From a virus (taxonomy: Duplodnaviria; Heunggongvirae; Uroviricota; Caudoviricetes), in IMG/VR virus record IMGVR_UViG_2703718813_000005: a stretch of DNA of 12,562 nt. One strand, written 5' to 3'. Each line of letters begins with the position of its first letter. The stretch's first letter is position 1. Made by a program: the position numbers and the translations under genes. Below are positions 5,626 to 12,562 of the stretch, piece by piece. The notes below the pieces were generated by a model that had not been told where the DNA came from, ran no database searches, and saw only the letters and a list, made by a program, of their open reading frames with translations.

Positions 5626-5642
5626 TTTTGTGGAGAAAGTTG

Positions 5643-6005
5643 ATGCGTGATATGTATGAAGTATTGGACCGCTGGGGAGCATGGGCTGCAGCAGAAAATA
5701 GTGGTGTGGACTGGCAGCCGATAGCGGCTGGTTTCAAGGGACTTTTACCACACGGTAAAAAGTCACGTCTCCAGTGTGATGATGATGAAGGCATCATGAT
5801 AGACGGTTGTGTGGCTCGGTTGCGAAAGTATAAACCAGAGGAATATGAGCTGATCATAGCTCACTTTGTTATTGGTATCTCATTACGCACTATTGCCAAG
5901 AAGAGAAGATGTTCAGATGGCACAATTAGGAAGGAATTGCAGACTGCCATGGGGTTTATCAGCGGTGTAATAATAACTATAAACCCCATTATGGTAGTTA
6001 ATTAA
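5643..6005 (+). CDS. Late antiterminator Q (phage 82 / QuuD-like family)
   Basis: MRDMYEVLDRWGAWAAAENSGVDWQPIAAGFKGLL...SRLQCDDDEG...CSDGTIRKELQTA matches the short Q family (LERWGAWAA, IAAGFKG, CSDG). GGAG upstream of ATG 5643. Confidence 0.85.
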   Translation: MRDMYEVLDRWGAWAAAENSGVDWQPIAAGFKGLLPHGKKSRLQCDDDEGIMIDGCVARLRKYKPEEYELIIAHFVIGISLRTIAKKRRCSDGTIRKELQTAMGFISGVIITINPIMVVN

Positions 6006-6573
6006 TGTGAATCCTATCACCAAGATAGTATAGTCCAAAAAATGTTGAAACAAGCATTTGCCATGTAAGGAATAAAAAGATAATGATATAGCACCAGTTT
6101 GCTATATCATTATTCAGTATGTTTATTAGTGGTGTGATAAAAGCGTTGAAAATCACTATGCATATGCTGAGGGCAGTTAAAAATGAAAATAACATGCACA
6201 GAAATAATCTTCTGGTAAGTTTCTCTTGAGTGTCAACAATTCTACCATTTTCTTTTGTTCGTGTAATTTTAATAAAAGGAGTGCCATTAGTTCCTATCAG
6301 AGGGTAGTCAATTTGTTCTCTGTTGAAAGTGGCTATTGCTGCAAGAGCTGCTATATAAAAACCTGGCAGATTTGATACAAATCCAGATATAGACTTAATA
6401 AAGCCGCCATCTTTTAGTAGGTCTGATGTAGGTATTTTAAATAAATAAAAGTAAAAAAAAGAAATCACAGCAAGCCCGGCAGGTGCATAAAAATCGTATG
6501 CGCACTTACCACTAATTCCCTTAATGAAAAGGTAACCAAACGGTCTAAATAAATGTGAAAATATACTAATCAT
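5998..6573 (-). CDS. Small integral membrane protein (191 aa, about four predicted helices)
   Basis: Hydrophobic segments GLAVISFFYFYLF, PGFYIAALAAIATF, LFLCMLFSFLTALSICIVIFNAFI and WCYIIIFLFLTWQMLVSTFFGLYYL. GAGG sits 5 nt upstream of the ATG, and the start lies 7 nt after the upstream gene's stop. Very AT-rich. Its 3' end overlaps the Q stop by a few nt. Confidence 0.6.
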   Translation of the reverse strand: MISIFSHLFRPFGYLFIKGISGKCAYDFYAPAGLAVISFFYFYLFKIPTSDLLKDGGFIKSISGFVSNLPGFYIAALAAIATFNREQIDYPLIGTNGTPFIKITRTKENGRIVDTQEKLTRRLFLCMLFSFLTALSICIVIFNAFITPLINILNNDIANWCYIIIFLFLTWQMLVSTFFGLYYLGDRIHIN

Positions 6574-6580
6574 ATTAGCC

Positions 6581-7609
6581 TCACATGACCTCGATAATCT
6601 TATTCACAAACTCCATGTTAATACTATCATAAGAATCCTTTAAGCGCGAAGAAAAACCATTTATTACACTCTTTTTGATAAATGTTTTTTCCAGCCCATC
6701 CAGCCTTACATTTGAAGTTTGAAGGTCAACTTGTCTTGTGAATCCTGTCTCTGGCTCTTTGAATTTTATTTTTATTAAGTCATAACCTCCATTTTTATCT
6801 TCTTTAAAGAAGTTTGAGACAGATTTTATCCATCCAAGGACATTGTTGGGGCCATGGTTTGGTACTAAGCGTAAAGTACTTTCTTTAGGAATAATAGCCG
6901 CGTTAACATCTGGCGCATTAATAGTTCTGTATTCATTCTTTACCAAAACGACATCAGAAAGTCCTTCTTTATTTATTTTATTGAACAAATCTTCATCTAA
7001 CTTTCCAGATATATCAAAGACTGGCTTGTATAATACTTTTATTTTTTTCTTTGTTAAACTTGACACTTCATTTGTTAAAGTGTGACATGAAAAGATATCT
7101 TCATTATCTTTGGCTACGTTAAAGAGAACTTTATTCAGGAAACCATTTATTTTTGCTGTGGAAACTCCTGGTATTGGCATAAAACTCATGTCATACGTTC
7201 GCATATTTCCGTCTAGAGAAATAATCATATGAGAAGAAACTTCGTAACCTTCACCTTCCTCATGTTTTGGTGATATTTCGGTGCGAACATCTGTATTAAT
7301 GTTTTTTAATACAGTAGTGCTTCCATTTTTATCTACAGCATTAATTAAAAGACCAAGATGGCTGGGTTTTTTATCGGCTCTGTTTGATAAGAATATTACA
7401 TCTTGTAAAGTTAAAACTAAGTCTCCTTTTTCATAACTGTGCATCATTGCTTTACAACGTACTATTTTAGAAGCAAGTTCACGCATTGTTGGTACCGGGC
7501 AAACACAGTTCGATCTGATGCTATCATCAATTTTCTGTGTACGGTATTGTGTATCGATCGTAATAGTATGATGAGTTATTACTCTACTGAATGCGTCCAG
7601 TGTAGCCAT
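6581..7609 (-). CDS. Hypothetical soluble protein (342 aa), first gene of the AT-rich cassette
   Basis: Long uninterrupted ORF in an AT-rich segment, with Lys/Asn/Ile-rich composition typical of foreign low-GC DNA. No signal peptide or transmembrane segment visible. Weak ribosome-binding site. No family recognised. Confidence 0.6.
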   Translation of the reverse strand: MATLDAFSRVITHHTITIDTQYRTQKIDDSIRSNCVCPVPTMRELASKIVRCKAMMHSYEKGDLVLTLQDVIFLSNRADKKPSHLGLLINAVDKNGSTTVLKNINTDVRTEISPKHEEGEGYEVSSHMIISLDGNMRTYDMSFMPIPGVSTAKINGFLNKVLFNVAKDNEDIFSCHTLTNEVSSLTKKKIKVLYKPVFDISGKLDEDLFNKINKEGLSDVVLVKNEYRTINAPDVNAAIIPKESTLRLVPNHGPNNVLGWIKSVSNFFKEDKNGGYDLIKIKFKEPETGFTRQVDLQTSNVRLDGLEKTFIKKSVINGFSSRLKDSYDSINMEFVNKIIEVM

Positions 7610-7722
7610 TTCAAAATATCCGCTTCTTTGCTGTTTTTATATGGAGAAAGTTTACATAACCACTAACGCGTACGCAAAAACTATTGTATCGTGTTAAGAG
7701 TGGTTACTTCGCCACACAGCTT

Positions 7723-7747
7723 AAACCCGCCGCGAGCGGGTTTTTTT
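7723..7747 (+). terminator. Rho-independent terminator (tR'-like position)
   Basis: AAACCCGC (7723-7730), loop CGCGA, GCGGGTTT (7736-7743), then T-run to 7747. Confidence 0.7.
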
Positions 7748-7869
7748 ATGGCTGAAATCGGTCCAGTACAGTAAACGCGCTGGCGGCGGTGAATACCGGT
7801 CTTTCAGCTTGCTGGCTTTTTTGACAAGAGTTATTGGTGTGTCACGTTAACCGGAAAAGGGAAAAAGAC

Positions 7870-8067
7870 ATGCTGAAACAGCAGGATATGACCGAAACCG
7901 CCAGAGTGGTGTTTAATGAATTAAGTGCCACCGCACCGGCGACAGTCGGGGAGATTGCACAGAATACGTACCTTTCACGCGAACGCTGCCAGCTAATACT
8001 GACCCAGCTTGTTATGGCGGGTCTGGCAGACTATCAGTTCGGTTGTTACAGACGCCTTCAGTCCTGA
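7870..8067 (+). CDS. Small winged-helix protein (PapI/FaeA-like?), 65 aa
   Basis: TVGEIAQNTYLSRERCQLILTQLVMAGLA resembles small wHTH regulators. TTGACA at 7821-7826 is a possible -35. The stop lies inside a strong terminator. Confidence 0.45.
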   Translation: MLKQQDMTETARVVFNELSATAPATVGEIAQNTYLSRERCQLILTQLVMAGLADYQFGCYRRLQS

Positions 8068-8077
8068 AGGCTTTTTT
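8054..8077 (+). terminator. Rho-independent terminator
   Basis: GCCTTCA (8054-8060), loop GTCC, TGAAGGC (8065-8071), then TTTTTT (8072-8077). Confidence 0.7.
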
Positions 8078-8094
8078 ATTTGTGGTAAATGGGC

Positions 8095-8125
8095 GGCTGG
8101 TGGGTGTTAGGGGCACTCACCAGCC
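8095..8125 (+). other. Strong 12-bp stem-loop in the leader of the second methyltransferase gene
   Basis: GGCTGGTGGGTG (8095-8106), loop TTAGGGG, CACTCACCAGCC (8114-8125). 11 Watson-Crick pairs plus one G-U. No T-run follows, so it is not an intrinsic terminator. Confidence 0.45.
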
Positions 8126-8218
8126 ATCTGCTCATGCGTCCGGATCACAAGCAAACCTCAGGCCCATCTGCTTTGCGCAAAAGCGGTATGAGCCTATCAG
8201 AGACAGGCTTAATGATCC

Positions 8219-9286
8219 ATGTTTAATACTGTAAAAATATCCAGTCGTGAATTAATCAACGCCGACTGCCTGGAATTTATCCGGTCGTTACCCGAAAATT
8301 CTGTTGACCTGATAGTCACGGACCCGCCGTACTTTAAAGTGAAGCCTGAGGGCTGGGATAACCAGTGGAAGGGCGACGATGATTACCTGAAGTGGCTGGA
8401 CCAGTGTCTTGCGCAGTTCTGGCGGGTGCTGAAACCTGCCGGAAGTCTTTACCTGTTCTGTGGCCATCGCCTGGCATCTGACATTGAAATCATGATGCGT
8501 GAACGCTTCAGTGTGCTGAACCATATTATCTGGGCGAAGCCGTCCGGACGCTGGAACGGGTGCAACAAGGAAAGCCTGCGGGCGTATTTCCCCGCCACAG
8601 AGCGCATTCTGTTCGCGGAACATTATCAGGGGCCGTATCGTCCGAAAGATGCCGGGTATGAGGCGAAGGGCAGGGCACTGAAACAGCATGTGATGGCACC
8701 GCTGATTGCTTACTTTCGTGATGCGCGCGCTGCCCTGGGGATAACGGCAAAACAGATTGTGGATGCCACAGGAAAGAAAAACATGGTGTCGCACTGGTTC
8801 AGTGCCAGTCAGTGGCAACTGCCGGACGAAAGTGATTATCTGAAATTACAGGCGCTGTTTGCCCGGGTGGCAGAAGAGAAGCATCAGCGGGGTGAACTGG
8901 AGAAGCCCCACCACCAGCTGCTGGAGACGTATACTTCACTGAACCGGCAGTATGCGGAACTGCAGAGTGAATATAAGCATCTGCGGCGGTATTTTGGCGT
9001 GACGGCGCAGGTGCCGTACACGGATGTGTGGACGCATAAACCGGTGCAGTACTATCCCGGGAAACATCCGTGCGAAAAACCGGCAGAAATGCTGCAGCAG
9101 ATAATCAGCGCGAGCAGTCGTCCGGGTGACCTGGTTGCAGATTTTTTCATGGGGTCGGGTTCGACAGTCAAAGCCGCGATGGCGCTGGGGCGTCGTGCAA
9201 CTGGCGTTGAGCTGGATACCGGGCGTTTTGAACAGACTGCGCAGGAAATCAGGGATGTATTTAGCGGGAGCGGTTTGCAGAAGTAA
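8219..9286 (+). CDS. DNA adenine methyltransferase (DPPY ... FxGxG order), orphan
   Basis: N-terminal SVDLIVTDPPYF (motif IV) and C-terminal DLVADFFMGSGSTVKAA (motif I), with HPCEKP. Resembles the YhdJ/phage adenine methylase layout with an insertion in the middle. Confidence 0.85.
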   Translation: MFNTVKISSRELINADCLEFIRSLPENSVDLIVTDPPYFKVKPEGWDNQWKGDDDYLKWLDQCLAQFWRVLKPAGSLYLFCGHRLASDIEIMMRERFSVLNHIIWAKPSGRWNGCNKESLRAYFPATERILFAEHYQGPYRPKDAGYEAKGRALKQHVMAPLIAYFRDARAALGITAKQIVDATGKKNMVSHWFSASQWQLPDESDYLKLQALFARVAEEKHQRGELEKPHHQLLETYTSLNRQYAELQSEYKHLRRYFGVTAQVPYTDVWTHKPVQYYPGKHPCEKPAEMLQQIISASSRPGDLVADFFMGSGSTVKAAMALGRRATGVELDTGRFEQTAQEIRDVFSGSGLQK

Positions 9287-9349
9287 TCTCCCAAAATGCC
9301 ATTTTTGGAATATACTGGTATTAAGTCTTTTTGCTCAGGTTAATTCAAA

Positions 9350-10075
9350 ATGGATGTTGCCTGCTCTGTGGTCCTGATTCGCTATCCGATAGATATTTTT
9401 CTTGAAAAAGAAAAAGTTTCACTCGATGCCGGAAGTGTTATGCTTGTTGCCAGAAATATAAGAGGGCTTTTCTGTGCTTATGCCGACAGAGTGAAAATGG
9501 CAGATATAAGTAACAGCGTCGTCAATCAGTATCTGGAAAGGGAGTGTGAACTGACGGAGTATACACCGACAAAAATGCCTCTTTATTTGATGTCTGATAT
9601 TTACAATACGGAACTGGCGGAGGCTTTAATAACCCAGCATAGTGAATCCAGTGATACTTTGAAGGATTTCTCTGTTATAACCGCATTTTCATGTATCTCC
9701 TTATTTGCAACAGACAGGCGTCTGCCATTATTTTTGTCCGGTGCTGTAAATAATATCAGCTGTAAAGTAAGGGCTATAATTCAGACCGACATATCGGCAG
9801 GCTGGATGCTAGGTGTGATTGCATTACAATTGCATATGAGCGAAAGCTTGTTGAAGCGAAAACTTAAGGATGAAGGTTATAGCTTTAGTCGGTTGTTGCT
9901 GGAGGAGCGAATGCGTGTTGCTGTTAATCTTGTATGTTTCCAGCGAGAGTGTGGACAAGCGATAGCGGAAAAATGTGGTTACTCAAGTAAGTCCTATTTC
10001 ATTTCTGTATTTCACCAGTATTATGGTGCACCACCTGAGAGCTATGCATATTTGCAGAAAGCAGACGTTATCTGA
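9350..10075 (+). CDS. AraC-family transcriptional regulator (AppY-like)
   Basis: C-terminal AraC-type double HTH (GWMLGVIALQLHMSESLLKRKLKDEGYSFSRLLLEERM ... IAEKCGYSSKSYFISVFHQYYGAPP). N-terminus MDVACSVV resembles prophage AppY. AT-rich gene. Confidence 0.75.
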   Translation: MDVACSVVLIRYPIDIFLEKEKVSLDAGSVMLVARNIRGLFCAYADRVKMADISNSVVNQYLERECELTEYTPTKMPLYLMSDIYNTELAEALITQHSESSDTLKDFSVITAFSCISLFATDRRLPLFLSGAVNNISCKVRAIIQTDISAGWMLGVIALQLHMSESLLKRKLKDEGYSFSRLLLEERMRVAVNLVCFQRECGQAIAEKCGYSSKSYFISVFHQYYGAPPESYAYLQKADVI

Positions 10076-10164
10076 TGTTTTTTCATCAGGCATATATTGA
10101 TTGACTGTATTAGATATAGTCTGAATGTGTTCAGCATAAAGAGTTATAATCATTTGGTGTTTGC

Positions 10165-10443
10165 GTGAATATTGATGAGAAAATCAGATGTAGCCAACTG
10201 TTACAGCGTATTGAAGCCGTCAATGTGGAACGAACAAAGGTCTTCAGTCGTCTGACAGTTTTATTTTGTACCCCTGATCGACGTTCAGGTCAGGAGATGG
10301 TTCTTCTGGATGTAGATGCACTTCGGAACGTCTGTGAGGAGTTCACCGCGGCTAATTCGGAGTTACTGAGTCTTGTTCAGGAGTACAACAGAATTGCAGG
10401 TAGTAACGGTTTTGATGAAATCAAAATTATATCCCGTGGATAA
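10165..10443 (+). CDS. Hypothetical small protein (92 aa)
   Basis: ORF with a GTG start downstream of a TATAAT-like hexamer (10145-10150). AT-rich. No family recognised, and coding status is uncertain. Confidence 0.3.
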   Translation: MNIDEKIRCSQLLQRIEAVNVERTKVFSRLTVLFCTPDRRSGQEMVLLDVDALRNVCEEFTAANSELLSLVQEYNRIAGSNGFDEIKIISRG

Positions 10444-10687
10444 AACATATCCTGTATATTTATGTTGTTACATACAGGCGCTTTTAGTATCTGCCGCACG
10501 GCAGTTGTACTTCAGAATAAGATGCTTTTGTGACTGGTGGTGTTGTATCTGGGGTTAGCCAGGAGGCAGGTTCAGAGAGTCCGGTGGTAATTATGTGTAT
10601 GCAGTGGTTGTTGCTGTACCGTGGGCAAGTTCTGGAACTGGCTTCGTCCATTGTAGATGATTGTTAGCTGGATATCAGTTACCTCAT

Positions 10688-10926
10688 GGAAATGTTAAAT
10701 GACTCACAATTCGGTTGATGGACTATTGTCTGATCGATGGAAGTCTTGTAAAAACGAGCCAGCATAGTGAATCCCCCTGTGCGGAGGGGCGTCTGACATG
10801 GTCTCCATAGCGATGGTCATAATACGCAGATTCAGTAGTCAGGCTGAATCTACCGGGAGGCACCCGGCACTATGCTGCTTATGGTGTATACATAGCGATC
10901 GGCCCCTCTCCGGAGGGGCTTTTTTA
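10688..10926 (+). repeat. Tandem structured element, copy A (sRNA candidate)
   Basis: Shares with copy B the blocks AAATGTTAAAT, CTCACAATTC, GTGAATCCCCCTGTGCGGAGGGG (10767-10789) and ACCGGGAGGCACCCGGCAC (10852-10870). Ends in an intrinsic terminator. Confidence 0.55.
10902..10926 (+). terminator. Rho-independent terminator of copy A
   Basis: GCCCCTC / GAGGGGC stem around a CTCCGGAG palindrome, followed by TTTTTT. Confidence 0.7.
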
Positions 10927-10947
10927 TGCAGGGAAAAGGCTGTGTTG

Positions 10948-11177
10948 TGAAATGTTAAATTCCTCACAATTCATGAGGTTGATGATTGTCTGATTGATGA
11001 GGAGTTTGTTAAAAAAAACGGGCATGGTGAATCCCCCTGTGCGGAGGGGTGATATCGTATCATTTCCTGTGTGGCCGACTGATATCACGGACATTTGTTC
11101 ACCGGGAGGCACCCGGCACCATGCAGTATACAGAGATTAGGCATACATCCAGGCTCCTCATCGCAGGAGCCTTTTTA
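10948..11177 (+). repeat. Tandem structured element, copy B (sRNA candidate)
   Basis: Same conserved blocks (11027-11049, 11101-11119), about 260 bp after their copy-A counterparts, with diverged sequence between them. Ends in its own terminator. Confidence 0.55.
11152..11176 (+). terminator. Rho-independent terminator of copy B
   Basis: GGCTCCT (11152-11158), loop CATCGC, AGGAGCC (11165-11171), then TTTTT. Confidence 0.7.
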
Positions 11178-11180
11178 CAT

Positions 11181-11210
11181 GTAAAAAAACCGCTCCTGGG
11201 AAGAGCGGTT
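11181..11210 (-). terminator. Rho-independent terminator, minus-strand orientation
   Basis: AACCGCTC (11188-11195) / GAGCGGTT (11203-11210) stem is preceded on the + strand by an A-run (11183-11189), so the T-run follows the hairpin on the minus strand. Forms a face-to-face pair with the 11152-11176 terminator. Confidence 0.5.
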
Positions 11211-11407
11211 GGCAAGGAAGCAAGGAATAAATAACAAAACGTGAAGTAATTTATTCAGCACCCTAATAATACCTTAGAGTAATCACCTTGCGCAACTGTA
11301 AGGGCGTATTTCTTTTTTGCGGGCTGTTTTTCTGTGTGACTTTTGTGTTTCCGGAGGTCAGCCCGTGCCTTCTCTGACTCAGAACATTATCCCGGCCGGG
11401 AGGATTC

Positions 11408-12562
11408 ATGGCATTTAAACACTACGATGTGGTCAGGGCGGCATCGCCGTCAGACCTTGCTGAACGACTGACACAAAAACTGAAGGAGGGCTGGCAGCCA
11501 TTTGGCAGTCCGGTGGCCATCACGCCTTATACCCTGATGCAGGCCATTGCGGCGGAAGGTGATGTCACCACACCAGTGGCGGTGACCGGTAATGAGGGTA
11601 AGGCGGTGGCTGTCAGTGCCACCAGCGACCCGGAGTATTACTTTGTTGTGGTTCTGGCAGGGCAGTCAAATGGCATGTCGTATGGTGAAGGTCTTCCGCT
11701 GCCGGAGACATATGACCGTCCGGACCCGCGTATTAAGCAGCTGGCGCGCCGCAGTACGGTGACACCGGGCGGTGTCGCCTGTAAATATAACGACATCATT
11801 CCGGCGGACCATTGTCTGCATGATGTGCAGGACATGAGCCGTCTTAACCATCCGAAAGCGGACCTGTCAAAGGGGCAGTACGGTACCGTGGGGCAGGGGC
11901 TGCATATCGCCAAAAAACTGCTGCCGTTTATACCGGCGAATGCGGGCATTCTGCTGGTTCCGTGCTGTCGTGGTGGCTCTGCGTTCACCACCGGAGCTGA
12001 TGGCACATACAGTGACGCGAGTGGTGCCTCGGAGAATTCAACCCGCTGGGGTGTGGACAAGCCGCTGTATAAGGACCTTATCGGTCGAACAAAAGCAGCA
12101 CTGAAGAAGAACCCGAAAAATGTGCTGTTTGCCGTGGTGTGGATGCAGGGGGAATTTGATTTTGGCGGTACGCCGGTAAATCATGCCGCACAGTTTGGTG
12201 CGCTGGTTGATAAATTCCGTGCAGACCTGGCGGATATGGCAGGTCAGTGCGTTGGTGGCTCTGCTGGCGGTGTTCCCTGGATATGCGGGGACACGACGTA
12301 TTTCTGGAAGCAGAAGAACGAATCCACGTACCAGACGGTGTACGGCAGCTATAAAAACAAAACGGAAAAGAATATCCATTTCGTACCGTTCATGACGGAT
12401 GAGAACGGGGTGAATGTGCCGACGAACAAACCGGAAGAAGACCCGGACATTCCGGGTATCGGGTATTACGGTTCGAAATGGCGTGACAGCTCAGCCACCT
12501 GGACGTCACAGGACAGGGCGAGCCATTTCAGCACCTGGGCTCGCCGTGGGATTATTTCCGAC
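11408..12562 (+). CDS. nanS-p: Prophage sialate O-acetylesterase NanS-p-like protein, 3'-truncated by the window end
   Basis: 385-codon open frame from ATG 11408 to the window edge, with GGGAGG upstream. It is absent from the ORF track, presumably because it has no stop. N-terminus MAFKHYDVVRAASPSDLAERL (DUF1737-like) and FVVVLAGQSNGMSYGEG (SGNH GQSN motif) match the Stx-phage nanS-p family. Confidence 0.75.
   Translation, partial: MAFKHYDVVRAASPSDLAERLTQKLKEGWQPFGSPVAITPYTLMQAIAAEGDVTTPVAVTGNEGKAVAVSATSDPEYYFVVVLAGQSNGMSYGEGLPLPETYDRPDPRIKQLARRSTVTPGGVACKYNDIIPADHCLHDVQDMSRLNHPKADLSKGQYGTVGQGLHIAKKLLPFIPANAGILLVPCCRGGSAFTTGADGTYSDASGASENSTRWGVDKPLYKDLIGRTKAALKKNPKNVLFAVVWMQGEFDFGGTPVNHAAQFGALVDKFRADLADMAGQCVGGSAGGVPWICGDTTYFWKQKNESTYQTVYGSYKNKTEKNIHFVPFMTDENGVNVPTNKPEEDPDIPGIGYYGSKWRDSSATWTSQDRASHFSTWARRGIISD

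Follow-up and report, generated by a model that had tools for sequence, protein, structure and literature searches.

STnc100 (Rfam RF02076) is a family of small RNAs (sRNAs) that ranks among the most widespread prophage RNAs of pathogenic Escherichia coli. Strain EDL933 carries 11 copies, with RNA-seq read counts between several hundred and several thousand for all but one of them, and one copy, STnc100_4, is positive on Northern blots (PMC5331693). EcOnc27 (= sRNA103), which was detected by Hfq-CRAC (crosslinking and analysis of cDNAs) and Northern blotting, overlaps the STnc100 copy behind stx2B (PMC7873438), and its overexpression raises fimZ and espA transcripts (PMC12711010; PMC7873438). 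In a machine-learning study, haemolytic uraemic syndrome was predicted most strongly by sequence variants behind stx2, where this copy sits (PMC12711010). At the moron site of eight Sakai prophages, Tree et al. (2014) found convergent pairs of Hfq-bound sRNAs (PMC4104026; PMC7873438). Here, we analyze positions 10688-11177 of the virus record IMGVR_UViG_2703718813_000005, a tailed phage sequence of 12,562 nt (the window), where a first-pass annotation made from the letters alone had noticed a tandem pair of diverged, structured elements upstream of a nanS-p gene and had read them as paralogous sRNA genes.

Relatives of STnc100 are PasD1 and PasD2 of enteropathogenic E. coli (EPEC) E2348/69, which correspond to EcOnc13 of enterohaemorrhagic E. 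coli (EHEC) and for which Zhu, Shabalina and Storz (bioRxiv 2026) proposed an ancestor in common with STnc100. Both PasD RNAs are abundant, positive on Northern blots and dependent on Hfq for their stability, and have targets in RIL-seq (which ligates interacting RNAs and sequences them; PMC8550237).

The tandem STnc100 units

The Rfam search that had been proposed as a check assigned both units to STnc100 over the full length of the model (positions 1-206), with copy 1 matching at 10733-10929 (120.8 bits, E = 1e-26) and copy 2 at 10993-11182 (141.3 bits, E = 7e-32) against a gathering score of 47 bits. These are two of the three matches that a gathering-threshold Rfam scan of the whole window returned, the other being a C4 antisense RNA (see below). 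The first-pass annotation had not recognized a known sRNA family, but this one is in Rfam and has been discussed in several papers. What it had said about the repeats themselves was borne out: The interval holds two head-to-tail units of around 260 bp each that share 79% column identity in a pairwise alignment, with ordered blocks kept, diverged stretches between them and one 12-nt indel. The two GC-rich hairpins that it had pointed out are present in both copies, and the stem with T-run that it had seen at the end of each copy was recovered by a terminator scan, which found 6 terminator-like sites where 1.2 were expected. Its description of structured elements of around 250 bp applies to the RNA part of each unit only, the first ~75 bp (from 10689 and 10949) being promoter and regulatory DNA.

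At 99.9% identity, the window corresponds to a chromosomal lambdoid prophage of E. coli SMBL, a goat isolate in which the RefSeq annotation (made with the Prokaryotic Genome Annotation Pipeline) shows no feature from the "HTH" (helix-turn-helix) gene to the SASA esterase gene. The array occupies the late-region moron site of this prophage, between Q and the nanS-p and lysis genes, and holin and lysozyme genes follow nanS-p in E. coli SMBL. This agrees with the earlier reading of a paralogous sRNA gene pair in the Q-to-lysis interval, since both units match RF02076 and homologues at the same position are transcribed. Judged by sequence and position, both units are unannotated members of a known sRNA family at its usual prophage location; the kind of unit is ordinary, and only the head-to-tail arrangement is uncommon.

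In phage 933W, a single STnc100 copy (207.7 bits) stands immediately after stx2B and before nanS-p, in the order Q, PR'/qut/tR', three tRNAs, stx2AB, STnc100, convergent AsxR and nanS-p. The window units likewise lie in the late lambdoid region, downstream of moron genes and upstream of nanS-p, and they have the closing helix, two hairpins and terminator in common with the STnc100 RNAs EcOnc27 (Sp5/933W) and EcOnc06 (Sp17). They differ in being two head-to-tail instead of one, in the other linker and extra central hairpin that set copy 1 apart from the EcOnc27 type, and in lacking stx and tRNAs upstream, where a methyltransferase and an AraC-like gene are found instead (no tRNA or tmRNA was found in the window). 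PasD1 and PasD2 resemble the window units in synteny, RNA layout and a start at GCAUGGUGAAUCC, but have a near-consensus promoter without the CRP-like site described below. The gene model that we propose for the two units comprises the following features, all on the plus strand:

10690-10711, plus strand: CRP-like 22-mer AAATGTTAAATGACTCACAATT of copy 1, an inferred site centred 61.5 nt before the predicted start
10726-10754, plus strand: predicted sigma-70 promoter of copy 1 (-35 TTGTCT at 10726-10731, 17-nt spacer, -10 TAAAAA at 10749-10754)
10762-10925, plus strand: copy 1, the "alpha" allele, with a predicted RNA of ~164 nt (from the RF02076 match, the minimum free energy (MFE) fold and the terminator scan)
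Parts of copy 1: closing helix 10762-10769/10868-10875; bulged hairpin 1 10772-10789; variable central hairpins; hairpin 2 10853-10867; 3' linker 10876-10900; terminator stem 10901-10920; U-run 10920-10925
10950-10971, plus strand: CRP-like 22-mer AAATGTTAAATTCCTCACAATT of copy 2, an inferred site centred 61.5 nt before the predicted start
10986-11015, plus strand: predicted sigma-70 promoter of copy 2 (-35 TTGTCT at 10986-10991, 18-nt spacer, -10 TAAAAA at 11010-11015)
11022-11176, plus strand: copy 2, the "delta" allele, with a predicted RNA of ~155 nt (from the RF02076 match, the fold and the EcOnc27-type 3' linker)
Parts of copy 2: closing helix 11022-11029/11117-11124; hairpin 1 11032-11049; hairpin 2 11102-11116; linker 11125-11150; terminator stem 11151-11172; U-run 11172-11176

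The RNAs are predicted to start at G10762 (copy 1) and G11022 (copy 2) because of homology with PasD2, whose 5' end in RNA-seq (NC_011601 position 741157, Table S6 of PMC8550237) is the G of GCAUGGUGAAUCC. The same G lies within GCAUGGUG, and the PasD2 promoter before the mapped start reads TTGACT, 17 nt, TTAAAA. When 80 distinct family members were lined up without gaps on the anchor GTGAATCCCC, promoters appeared at the same distance, several of them near-consensus (TTGACA or TTGAAA, 17 nt, TAAAT). If the RNAs start at these two positions, the first ~29 positions of the RF02076 model would represent promoter DNA.

Upstream of the promoters, both units show the pattern AAATGTTAAATnnCTCACAATT. 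The consensus of CRP is AAATGTGATCTAGATCACATTT, and -61.5 is the classic class I position of this regulator. Compared with the consensus, the window sites read TGTTA-N6-TCACA, flanked by AAA and TT, and the string TGTNA-N6-TCACA occurs twice in the window, both times at the units, where 0.14 occurrences are expected. Array members of related strains and 933W keep the half-sites, while the 6-nt spacer and the stretch to the -35 element vary. A TCACA half-site was present in 47 of 113 distinct promoter regions, with the centre of the site 60.5-62.5 nt upstream in 41 and at exactly 61.5 nt in 31. We therefore tentatively consider that both units may be activated by CRP and cyclic AMP (cAMP) from a class-I-type site. 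The same conserved upstream block contains CUCACA (10703-10708 and 10963-10968), which is the motif of PasD RIL-seq targets (PMC8550237, Table S7). PasD, with its seed UGUGAG, could pair with longer isoforms, such as the 235/247-nt EcOnc27 bands, if these include the block, and equally the motif may be a coincidental 6-mer within the CRP half-site.

Conserved core, variable linkers and array variation

Base pairing was counted across 72 distinct elements whose conserved core segments (5' and 3') had been aligned. Pairing in the closing helix of 8 bp amounts to 91%, with double changes at 5 of the 8 pairs, and hairpin 1 reaches 91.9% with 3 covarying pairs in a bulged register, where C:G pairs flank an unpaired nucleotide and a U:G pair is added. 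The register given for hairpin 1 in Rfam (CCCCU:AGGGG) was rejected as the poorer fit (82.8% paired), its U:A pair failing in 34 of the 72 cores. The covariation score of 0.232 compares with 0.106 in shuffled alignments, none of which reached it in 500 trials, and with at most 0.144 in slid controls. A compensatory difference also exists within the window, between A10766:U10871 in copy 1 and G:C in copy 2. The MFE folds of both RNAs (ViennaRNA) show the closing helix from the first nucleotide on, the bulged hairpin 1, the central hairpins, hairpin 2 and the terminator, with the linker largely open.

Hairpin 2 (CCGGG-AGGCA-CCCGG) was surveyed in 156 units found through the hairpin-1 pattern, with a hairpin-2-like sequence locatable in 151; its 15 nucleotides, CCGGGAGGCACCCGG, are identical in 143 of these, and the exceptions are isolated substitutions without a compensatory pair. 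Hairpin 2 is constrained at the level of sequence, beyond structure. In the alignment of 72 cores it is fixed by the search pattern and thus uninformative for covariation, so that the covariation analysis that had been suggested backs the closing helix and hairpin 1 and neither supports nor refutes the essentially invariant hairpin 2. In hairpin 1, the loop keeps U..GC.

Ungapped pairwise identity among 121 distinct units is 86% across the 5' helix and hairpin 1 and 91% across hairpin 2 and the 3' helix, but drops to 29%, the level of chance, over the 30 nt after the closing helix, where at least 55 linker classes are found. Promoters and central inserts are, like the linkers, unrelated between units that share hairpin 2. 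The copy 2 linker, AGUAUACAGAGAUUAGGCAUA, hardly differs from the one in the 933W STnc100 RNA, and it is this 933W 3' linker that the EcOnc27 Northern probe targets as its reverse complement (Tree et al., supplement). The PasD seed UGUGAG, to which its RIL-seq targets are complementary, is located in the same linker, just before the terminator.

The proposed relationship of PasD and STnc100 was confirmed, with PasD2 directly upstream of the esterase gene in E2348/69 and a sub-threshold model match of 41.4 bits; the range of PasD scores on the STnc100 model is 37.7-41.4 bits, below threshold, and both hairpins are degenerate. Membership of the window units in PasD itself was rejected, as UGUGAG is absent from both linkers and the scores are 121-141 bits against those of PasD. 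The hairpin 2 motif also retrieved more distant elements whose hairpin 1 reads GCGGC-UNNGC-GC-A-CGC or CCUUUC-UAAGC-GAAAGG, compensatory versions of the same bulged stem. Most of them match no Rfam family at gathering threshold (STnc100 28-43 bits), and two match in the core only:

3445-3667 of contig L002, minus strand: distant relative between an S24-type repressor gene and early-left genes plus integrase
4457-4572 of contig L013, minus strand: distant relative
9732-9939 of contig L024, plus strand: distant relative between an HTH gene and a Kil-domain gene
1183-1390 of contig L098, minus strand: distant relative
3131-3204 of contig L112, minus strand: distant relative

With L002 and L024, the setting is an immunity or early-left region in other temperate phages. 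Some of these relatives have a linker and terminator and look like sRNA genes, while others are closed by a 19-bp helix before a small open reading frame (ORF) or kil. The STnc100 core therefore appears as a module used beyond late-region sRNA genes. A contig scan with the 14-mer TGGTGAATCCCCCT was unspecific, nearly all of its 120 loci being fortuitous and from unrelated phyla, and the conserved motifs, searched as text in the literature, yielded a quantitative PCR primer only. The put RNA of phage HK022 is likewise a phage-encoded structured RNA of two stem-loops, and its putL site lies just downstream of the immunity region, like the distant STnc100 relatives, a resemblance that serves only as a lead. 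STnc100 units differ from it by ending at their own terminators and by their late-region position, and a put-like identity was rejected since the conserved 15-mer is absent from positions 22000-34000 of HK022 even when up to 3 mismatches are allowed.

In related prophages of E. coli that have these flanking genes in common, the number of units varies: Locus L124 has three and L126 four, while L125 has one unit and two further ones with a methyltransferase remnant between. Four alleles can be told apart, arranged as alpha-delta in the window, alpha-beta-delta in L124 and alpha-gamma-beta-delta in L126. The element at 2495-2694 of L125 has the body of a beta allele followed by linker and terminator of the delta (EcOnc27) type, the breakpoint falling in the region of hairpin 2 and the closing helix. 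Both this chimera and the allele orders suggest that the conserved core is a substrate for recombination, which would change copy number and reassort bodies and linkers. A query running from terminator 1 into the beginning of RNA 2 detected tandem junctions in 82 of the 5426 complete E. coli genomes (median, three junctions each), and in only five of them is the junction that of the window itself at an identity of at least 95%. Seven viral contigs of the scan also contain tandem pairs (L011, L019, L021, L032, L068, L072 and L091), in several of which the promoter and linker sequences are unrelated.

PasA and PasD copies are never tandem according to Zhu et al. (bioRxiv 2026), and no description of STnc100 arrays was found in the literature that we searched. 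The nearest parallels are OmrA/OmrB of E. coli and PrrF1/PrrF2 of Pseudomonas, which are likewise adjacent and independently transcribed sRNA paralogues that are alike in one part and different in another. These are core-genome genes fixed at two copies, whereas the window array is prophage-borne, comes in two to at least four copies depending on the strain, and is shuffled within the core. What is modestly new here is the array with its allele shuffling, the refined gene model, the predicted CRP site, the layout of a scaffold with a hypervariable linker, and the sub-threshold relatives.

Proposed mechanism and alternatives

By homology with described family members, host sigma-70 RNA polymerase would transcribe each gene from its own promoter, starting at G10762 or G11022, and stop at the gene's own terminator, so that the lysogen would contain stable RNAs of ~164 and ~155 nt. 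These would bind Hfq through the U-rich linker, the terminator hairpin and the U-tail and would act in trans, with the hypervariable 3' linker, where PasD has its seed segment, doing the base pairing; the conserved 5' domain, in which pairing begins at the first nucleotide, would form a stabilizing or protein-binding scaffold. An Hfq-dependent RNA acting in trans is the most economical mechanism because the PasD seed sits in this very linker, and the two copies should differ in their target sets because their linkers are unrelated. More tentatively, CRP-cAMP may activate both genes from the -61.5 site; in lytic growth, Q-modified polymerase coming from PR' may pass both terminators and transcribe nanS-p and the lysis genes, which the terminators may insulate in the lysogen. 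We consider it likely that the two units are autonomous STnc100 sRNA genes in tandem with transcription, Hfq binding and base pairing of this kind.

Several points weigh against this interpretation. The 5' ends in the window are placed by homology and not mapped, the predicted promoters fail a strict consensus scan, their -35 elements matching at 4 of 6 positions, and the fold z-scores are modest (-2.5 for copy 1 and -1.5 for copy 2). Evidence of expression comes from homologues and not from the source strain or these two alleles, and STnc100 members have no validated direct target, as the fimZ and espA shifts were seen on overexpression only. In the proposed CRP site, the left half is TGTTA, and the commonest subtype has a degenerate TTTTA; a CRP experiment on STnc100 promoters was not found in the literature. 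Ribosome footprints were reported on some EDL933 copies, with ribosome coverage values above 1 (PMC5331693), and a translated short peptide beginning MVNPPVRRG remains conceivable. The near-invariant hairpin 2, loop included, is left unexplained by a plain model of seed and Hfq. Finally, Northern bands of EcOnc27 run at ~235 and 247 nt, where ~174 nt is predicted for 933W from a transcription start at the helix, and longer isoforms must therefore exist in at least one member, produced by a start further upstream or by the processing of a transcript from upstream. EcOnc06, a beta-like STnc100 RNA of Sp17 (~177 nt), and EcOnc13, a PasD RNA (~187 nt), are both near prediction.

The invariance of hairpin 2 argues for an alternative in which the conserved 5' domain is the functional part, a decoy or modulator that binds a protein or complex (for example RNA polymerase, a nuclease or a defence protein), with linker pairing secondary. 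Such a function would fit the constancy of hairpin 2 with its AGGCA loop among units whose promoters, inserts and linkers are unrelated, the retained U..GC of the hairpin 1 loop, and the recurrence of the core in relatives from other phage regions, sometimes without promoter or terminator. The hairpins of PasD are degenerate, however, and PasD is nonetheless abundant, Hfq-dependent and rich in partners; the obvious analogue, HK022 put RNA, has no similar sequence, no partner is known, and the units terminate efficiently enough for discrete RNAs. We regard this alternative as unlikely, though the least so among those considered. That the units would mainly be cis-acting barriers that silence nanS-p and the lysis genes in the lysogen until Q-modified polymerase overrides them, with the RNAs as by-products, appears improbable. 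In its favour are the location of the units between Q and lysis genes, the presence of two strong terminators on the plus strand and a convergent one on the minus strand, the third hairpin before nanS-p, and the stacking of three to four terminators in arrays of three to four units. Yet a terminator requires neither ~110 nt of conserved, covarying structure nor a promoter of its own with a conserved upstream site, and homologues accumulate as Hfq-bound RNAs with RIL-seq partners; the insulating effect of the terminators is probably real but secondary.

Only a very slight chance is left to each of two further explanations. A constitutive-looking promoter with a terminator ~160 nt later in a late region recalls a late-promoter leader module of the PR'-tR' type, as in lambda 6S RNA or StxS, and StxS illustrates that such a leader can be a regulatory sRNA (PMC7873438). 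Against this, Q ends 4.7 kb upstream (at 6005) with five to six genes between, among them a minus-strand cassette, the methyltransferase and the AraC-like gene; in 933W, PR', qut and tR' directly follow Q and STnc100 comes 2 kb on, past the tRNAs and stx2AB; PasD2 of E2348/69 lies past two genes, 1.2 kb downstream of Q; and two to four tandem copies would make no sense for a Q-loading site. The repeats could also be remnants of a duplicated protein-coding gene or genes for small peptides. ORFs of 50-62 aa overlap the units, some phage records label homologues "hypothetical protein", and, besides the footprints, an E. coli-type RNA would begin GCAUGG and thus carry, with its AUG 2 nt from the 5' end, a leaderless frame for the peptide mentioned above. 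As the first-pass annotation had stated, however, no ORF is conserved: Among 129 distinct units, stop-to-stop frames across the core end very differently, continue into unrelated peptides and share only those residues that the RNA core dictates, and in other subfamilies the start codon is GUG or absent. At the level of the RNA, substitutions compensate for one another, and indels between units are free of any constraint by frame.

Beyond the sRNA gene pair that we favour, one may speculate, with considerable reserve, that STnc100 is modular, made of an invariant 5' module of closing helix, bulged hairpin 1 and hairpin 2 that would bind a specific protein or complex beyond any stabilizing role (shared with the immunity and early-left relatives) and a rapidly exchanged 3' targeting linker, and that arrays are batteries of regulators, possibly under CRP-cAMP control. 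If true, arrays of two to at least four alleles that are reshuffled inside an invariant hairpin would give a prophage a battery of differently targeted regulators. Around half of the complete E. coli genomes match an 801-nt query made of both units and the start of nanS-p. For the window, the result is mostly clarifying, in that the feature is real, non-coding and of a known family. Testable additions are a concrete gene model, a predicted division into the variable linker for targeting and the invariant hairpin as binding module, CRP-cAMP as a candidate signal, and natural arrays and chimeras usable as ready-made swap experiments.

Neighbouring elements and genomic setting

Two further hairpin elements lie between the array and nanS-p, and the genes around them were assigned by Pfam:

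5628-6005: Q (Pfam PF06530)
5998-7609, minus strand: two genes without Pfam match
8219-9286: DNA methylase (Pfam)
9350-10075: AraC-family regulator (Pfam HTH_18/HTH_AraC)
11183-11265, minus strand: convergent terminator hairpin (11210-11188 plus U-run) with a possible small RNA of ~80 nt, from the terminator scan
11286-11303, plus strand: hairpin and T-rich tract just upstream of nanS-p
11408 (ATG): nanS-p-like esterase gene (Pfam DUF1737 and SASA)

The arrangement of a sense STnc100-type RNA facing a convergent minus-strand terminator is also that of the EcOnc27/AsxR and EcOnc06/AgvB dyads (Tree et al. 2014). In 933W, AsxR stands at the equivalent place (88.1 bits), but a search of 7500-11500 gave no match at E<=1 to AsxR (RF02703), AgvB (RF02702) or any other Rfam family at 11183-11265. 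An identity with AsxR or AgvB was rejected on this ground and for lack of similarity to their conserved ~42-nt 3' region; the window's minus-strand element thus differs from the dyads in being non-homologous to these RNAs and in its only putative transcription. The segment has a fold z-score of -3.9 on the minus strand, occurs in 113 of 5426 E. coli genomes and has a weak candidate promoter (TTGCGC, 18 nt, TATTAT). It could be an undescribed convergent partner sRNA. The hairpin at 11286-11303 has a homologue in 933W, a stronger terminator-like hairpin at the equivalent place (GGCTGCGCAACTGCGCGGCC followed by TTTTT).

On the other side of the array, the AraC-family regulator lies directly 5' of it, a synteny shared with the L124 and L126 arrays, and we presume it to be akin to the prophage-encoded AraC-like regulators of EHEC. 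Between this gene and the array is an ORF of 92 aa with a GTG start (10165-10443), which has no Pfam match and is unannotated in RefSeq. The 245 bp from this ORF to copy 1 contain no partial STnc100 copy, as an Rfam search of 10444-10688 for a third one gave no match at E<=1.

Further upstream, the minus-strand pair at 5998-7609 forms a tail-to-tail insert directly after Q and matches PADLOC PDC-M53 (B protein 1.7e-54, A protein 7.8e-32), which makes it a candidate defence cassette between Q and the remaining late region. The C4 antisense RNA (RF01695) matches at 65-152 with 83.6 bits, where an ORF with an Ash/Rha domain (39-755) has its 5' end, and in RefSeq a longer Rha-family coding sequence spans the match. 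The combination resembles an immunity module of the P1/P7 c4-ant type, here in a lambdoid prophage. Weak matches below threshold to isrK (20 bits, E 0.31) and a Trp leader, at 7668-7749 in the intergenic stretch that follows the minus-strand cassette, are probably due to chance, and the late promoter and leader of the phage might be located in this stretch.

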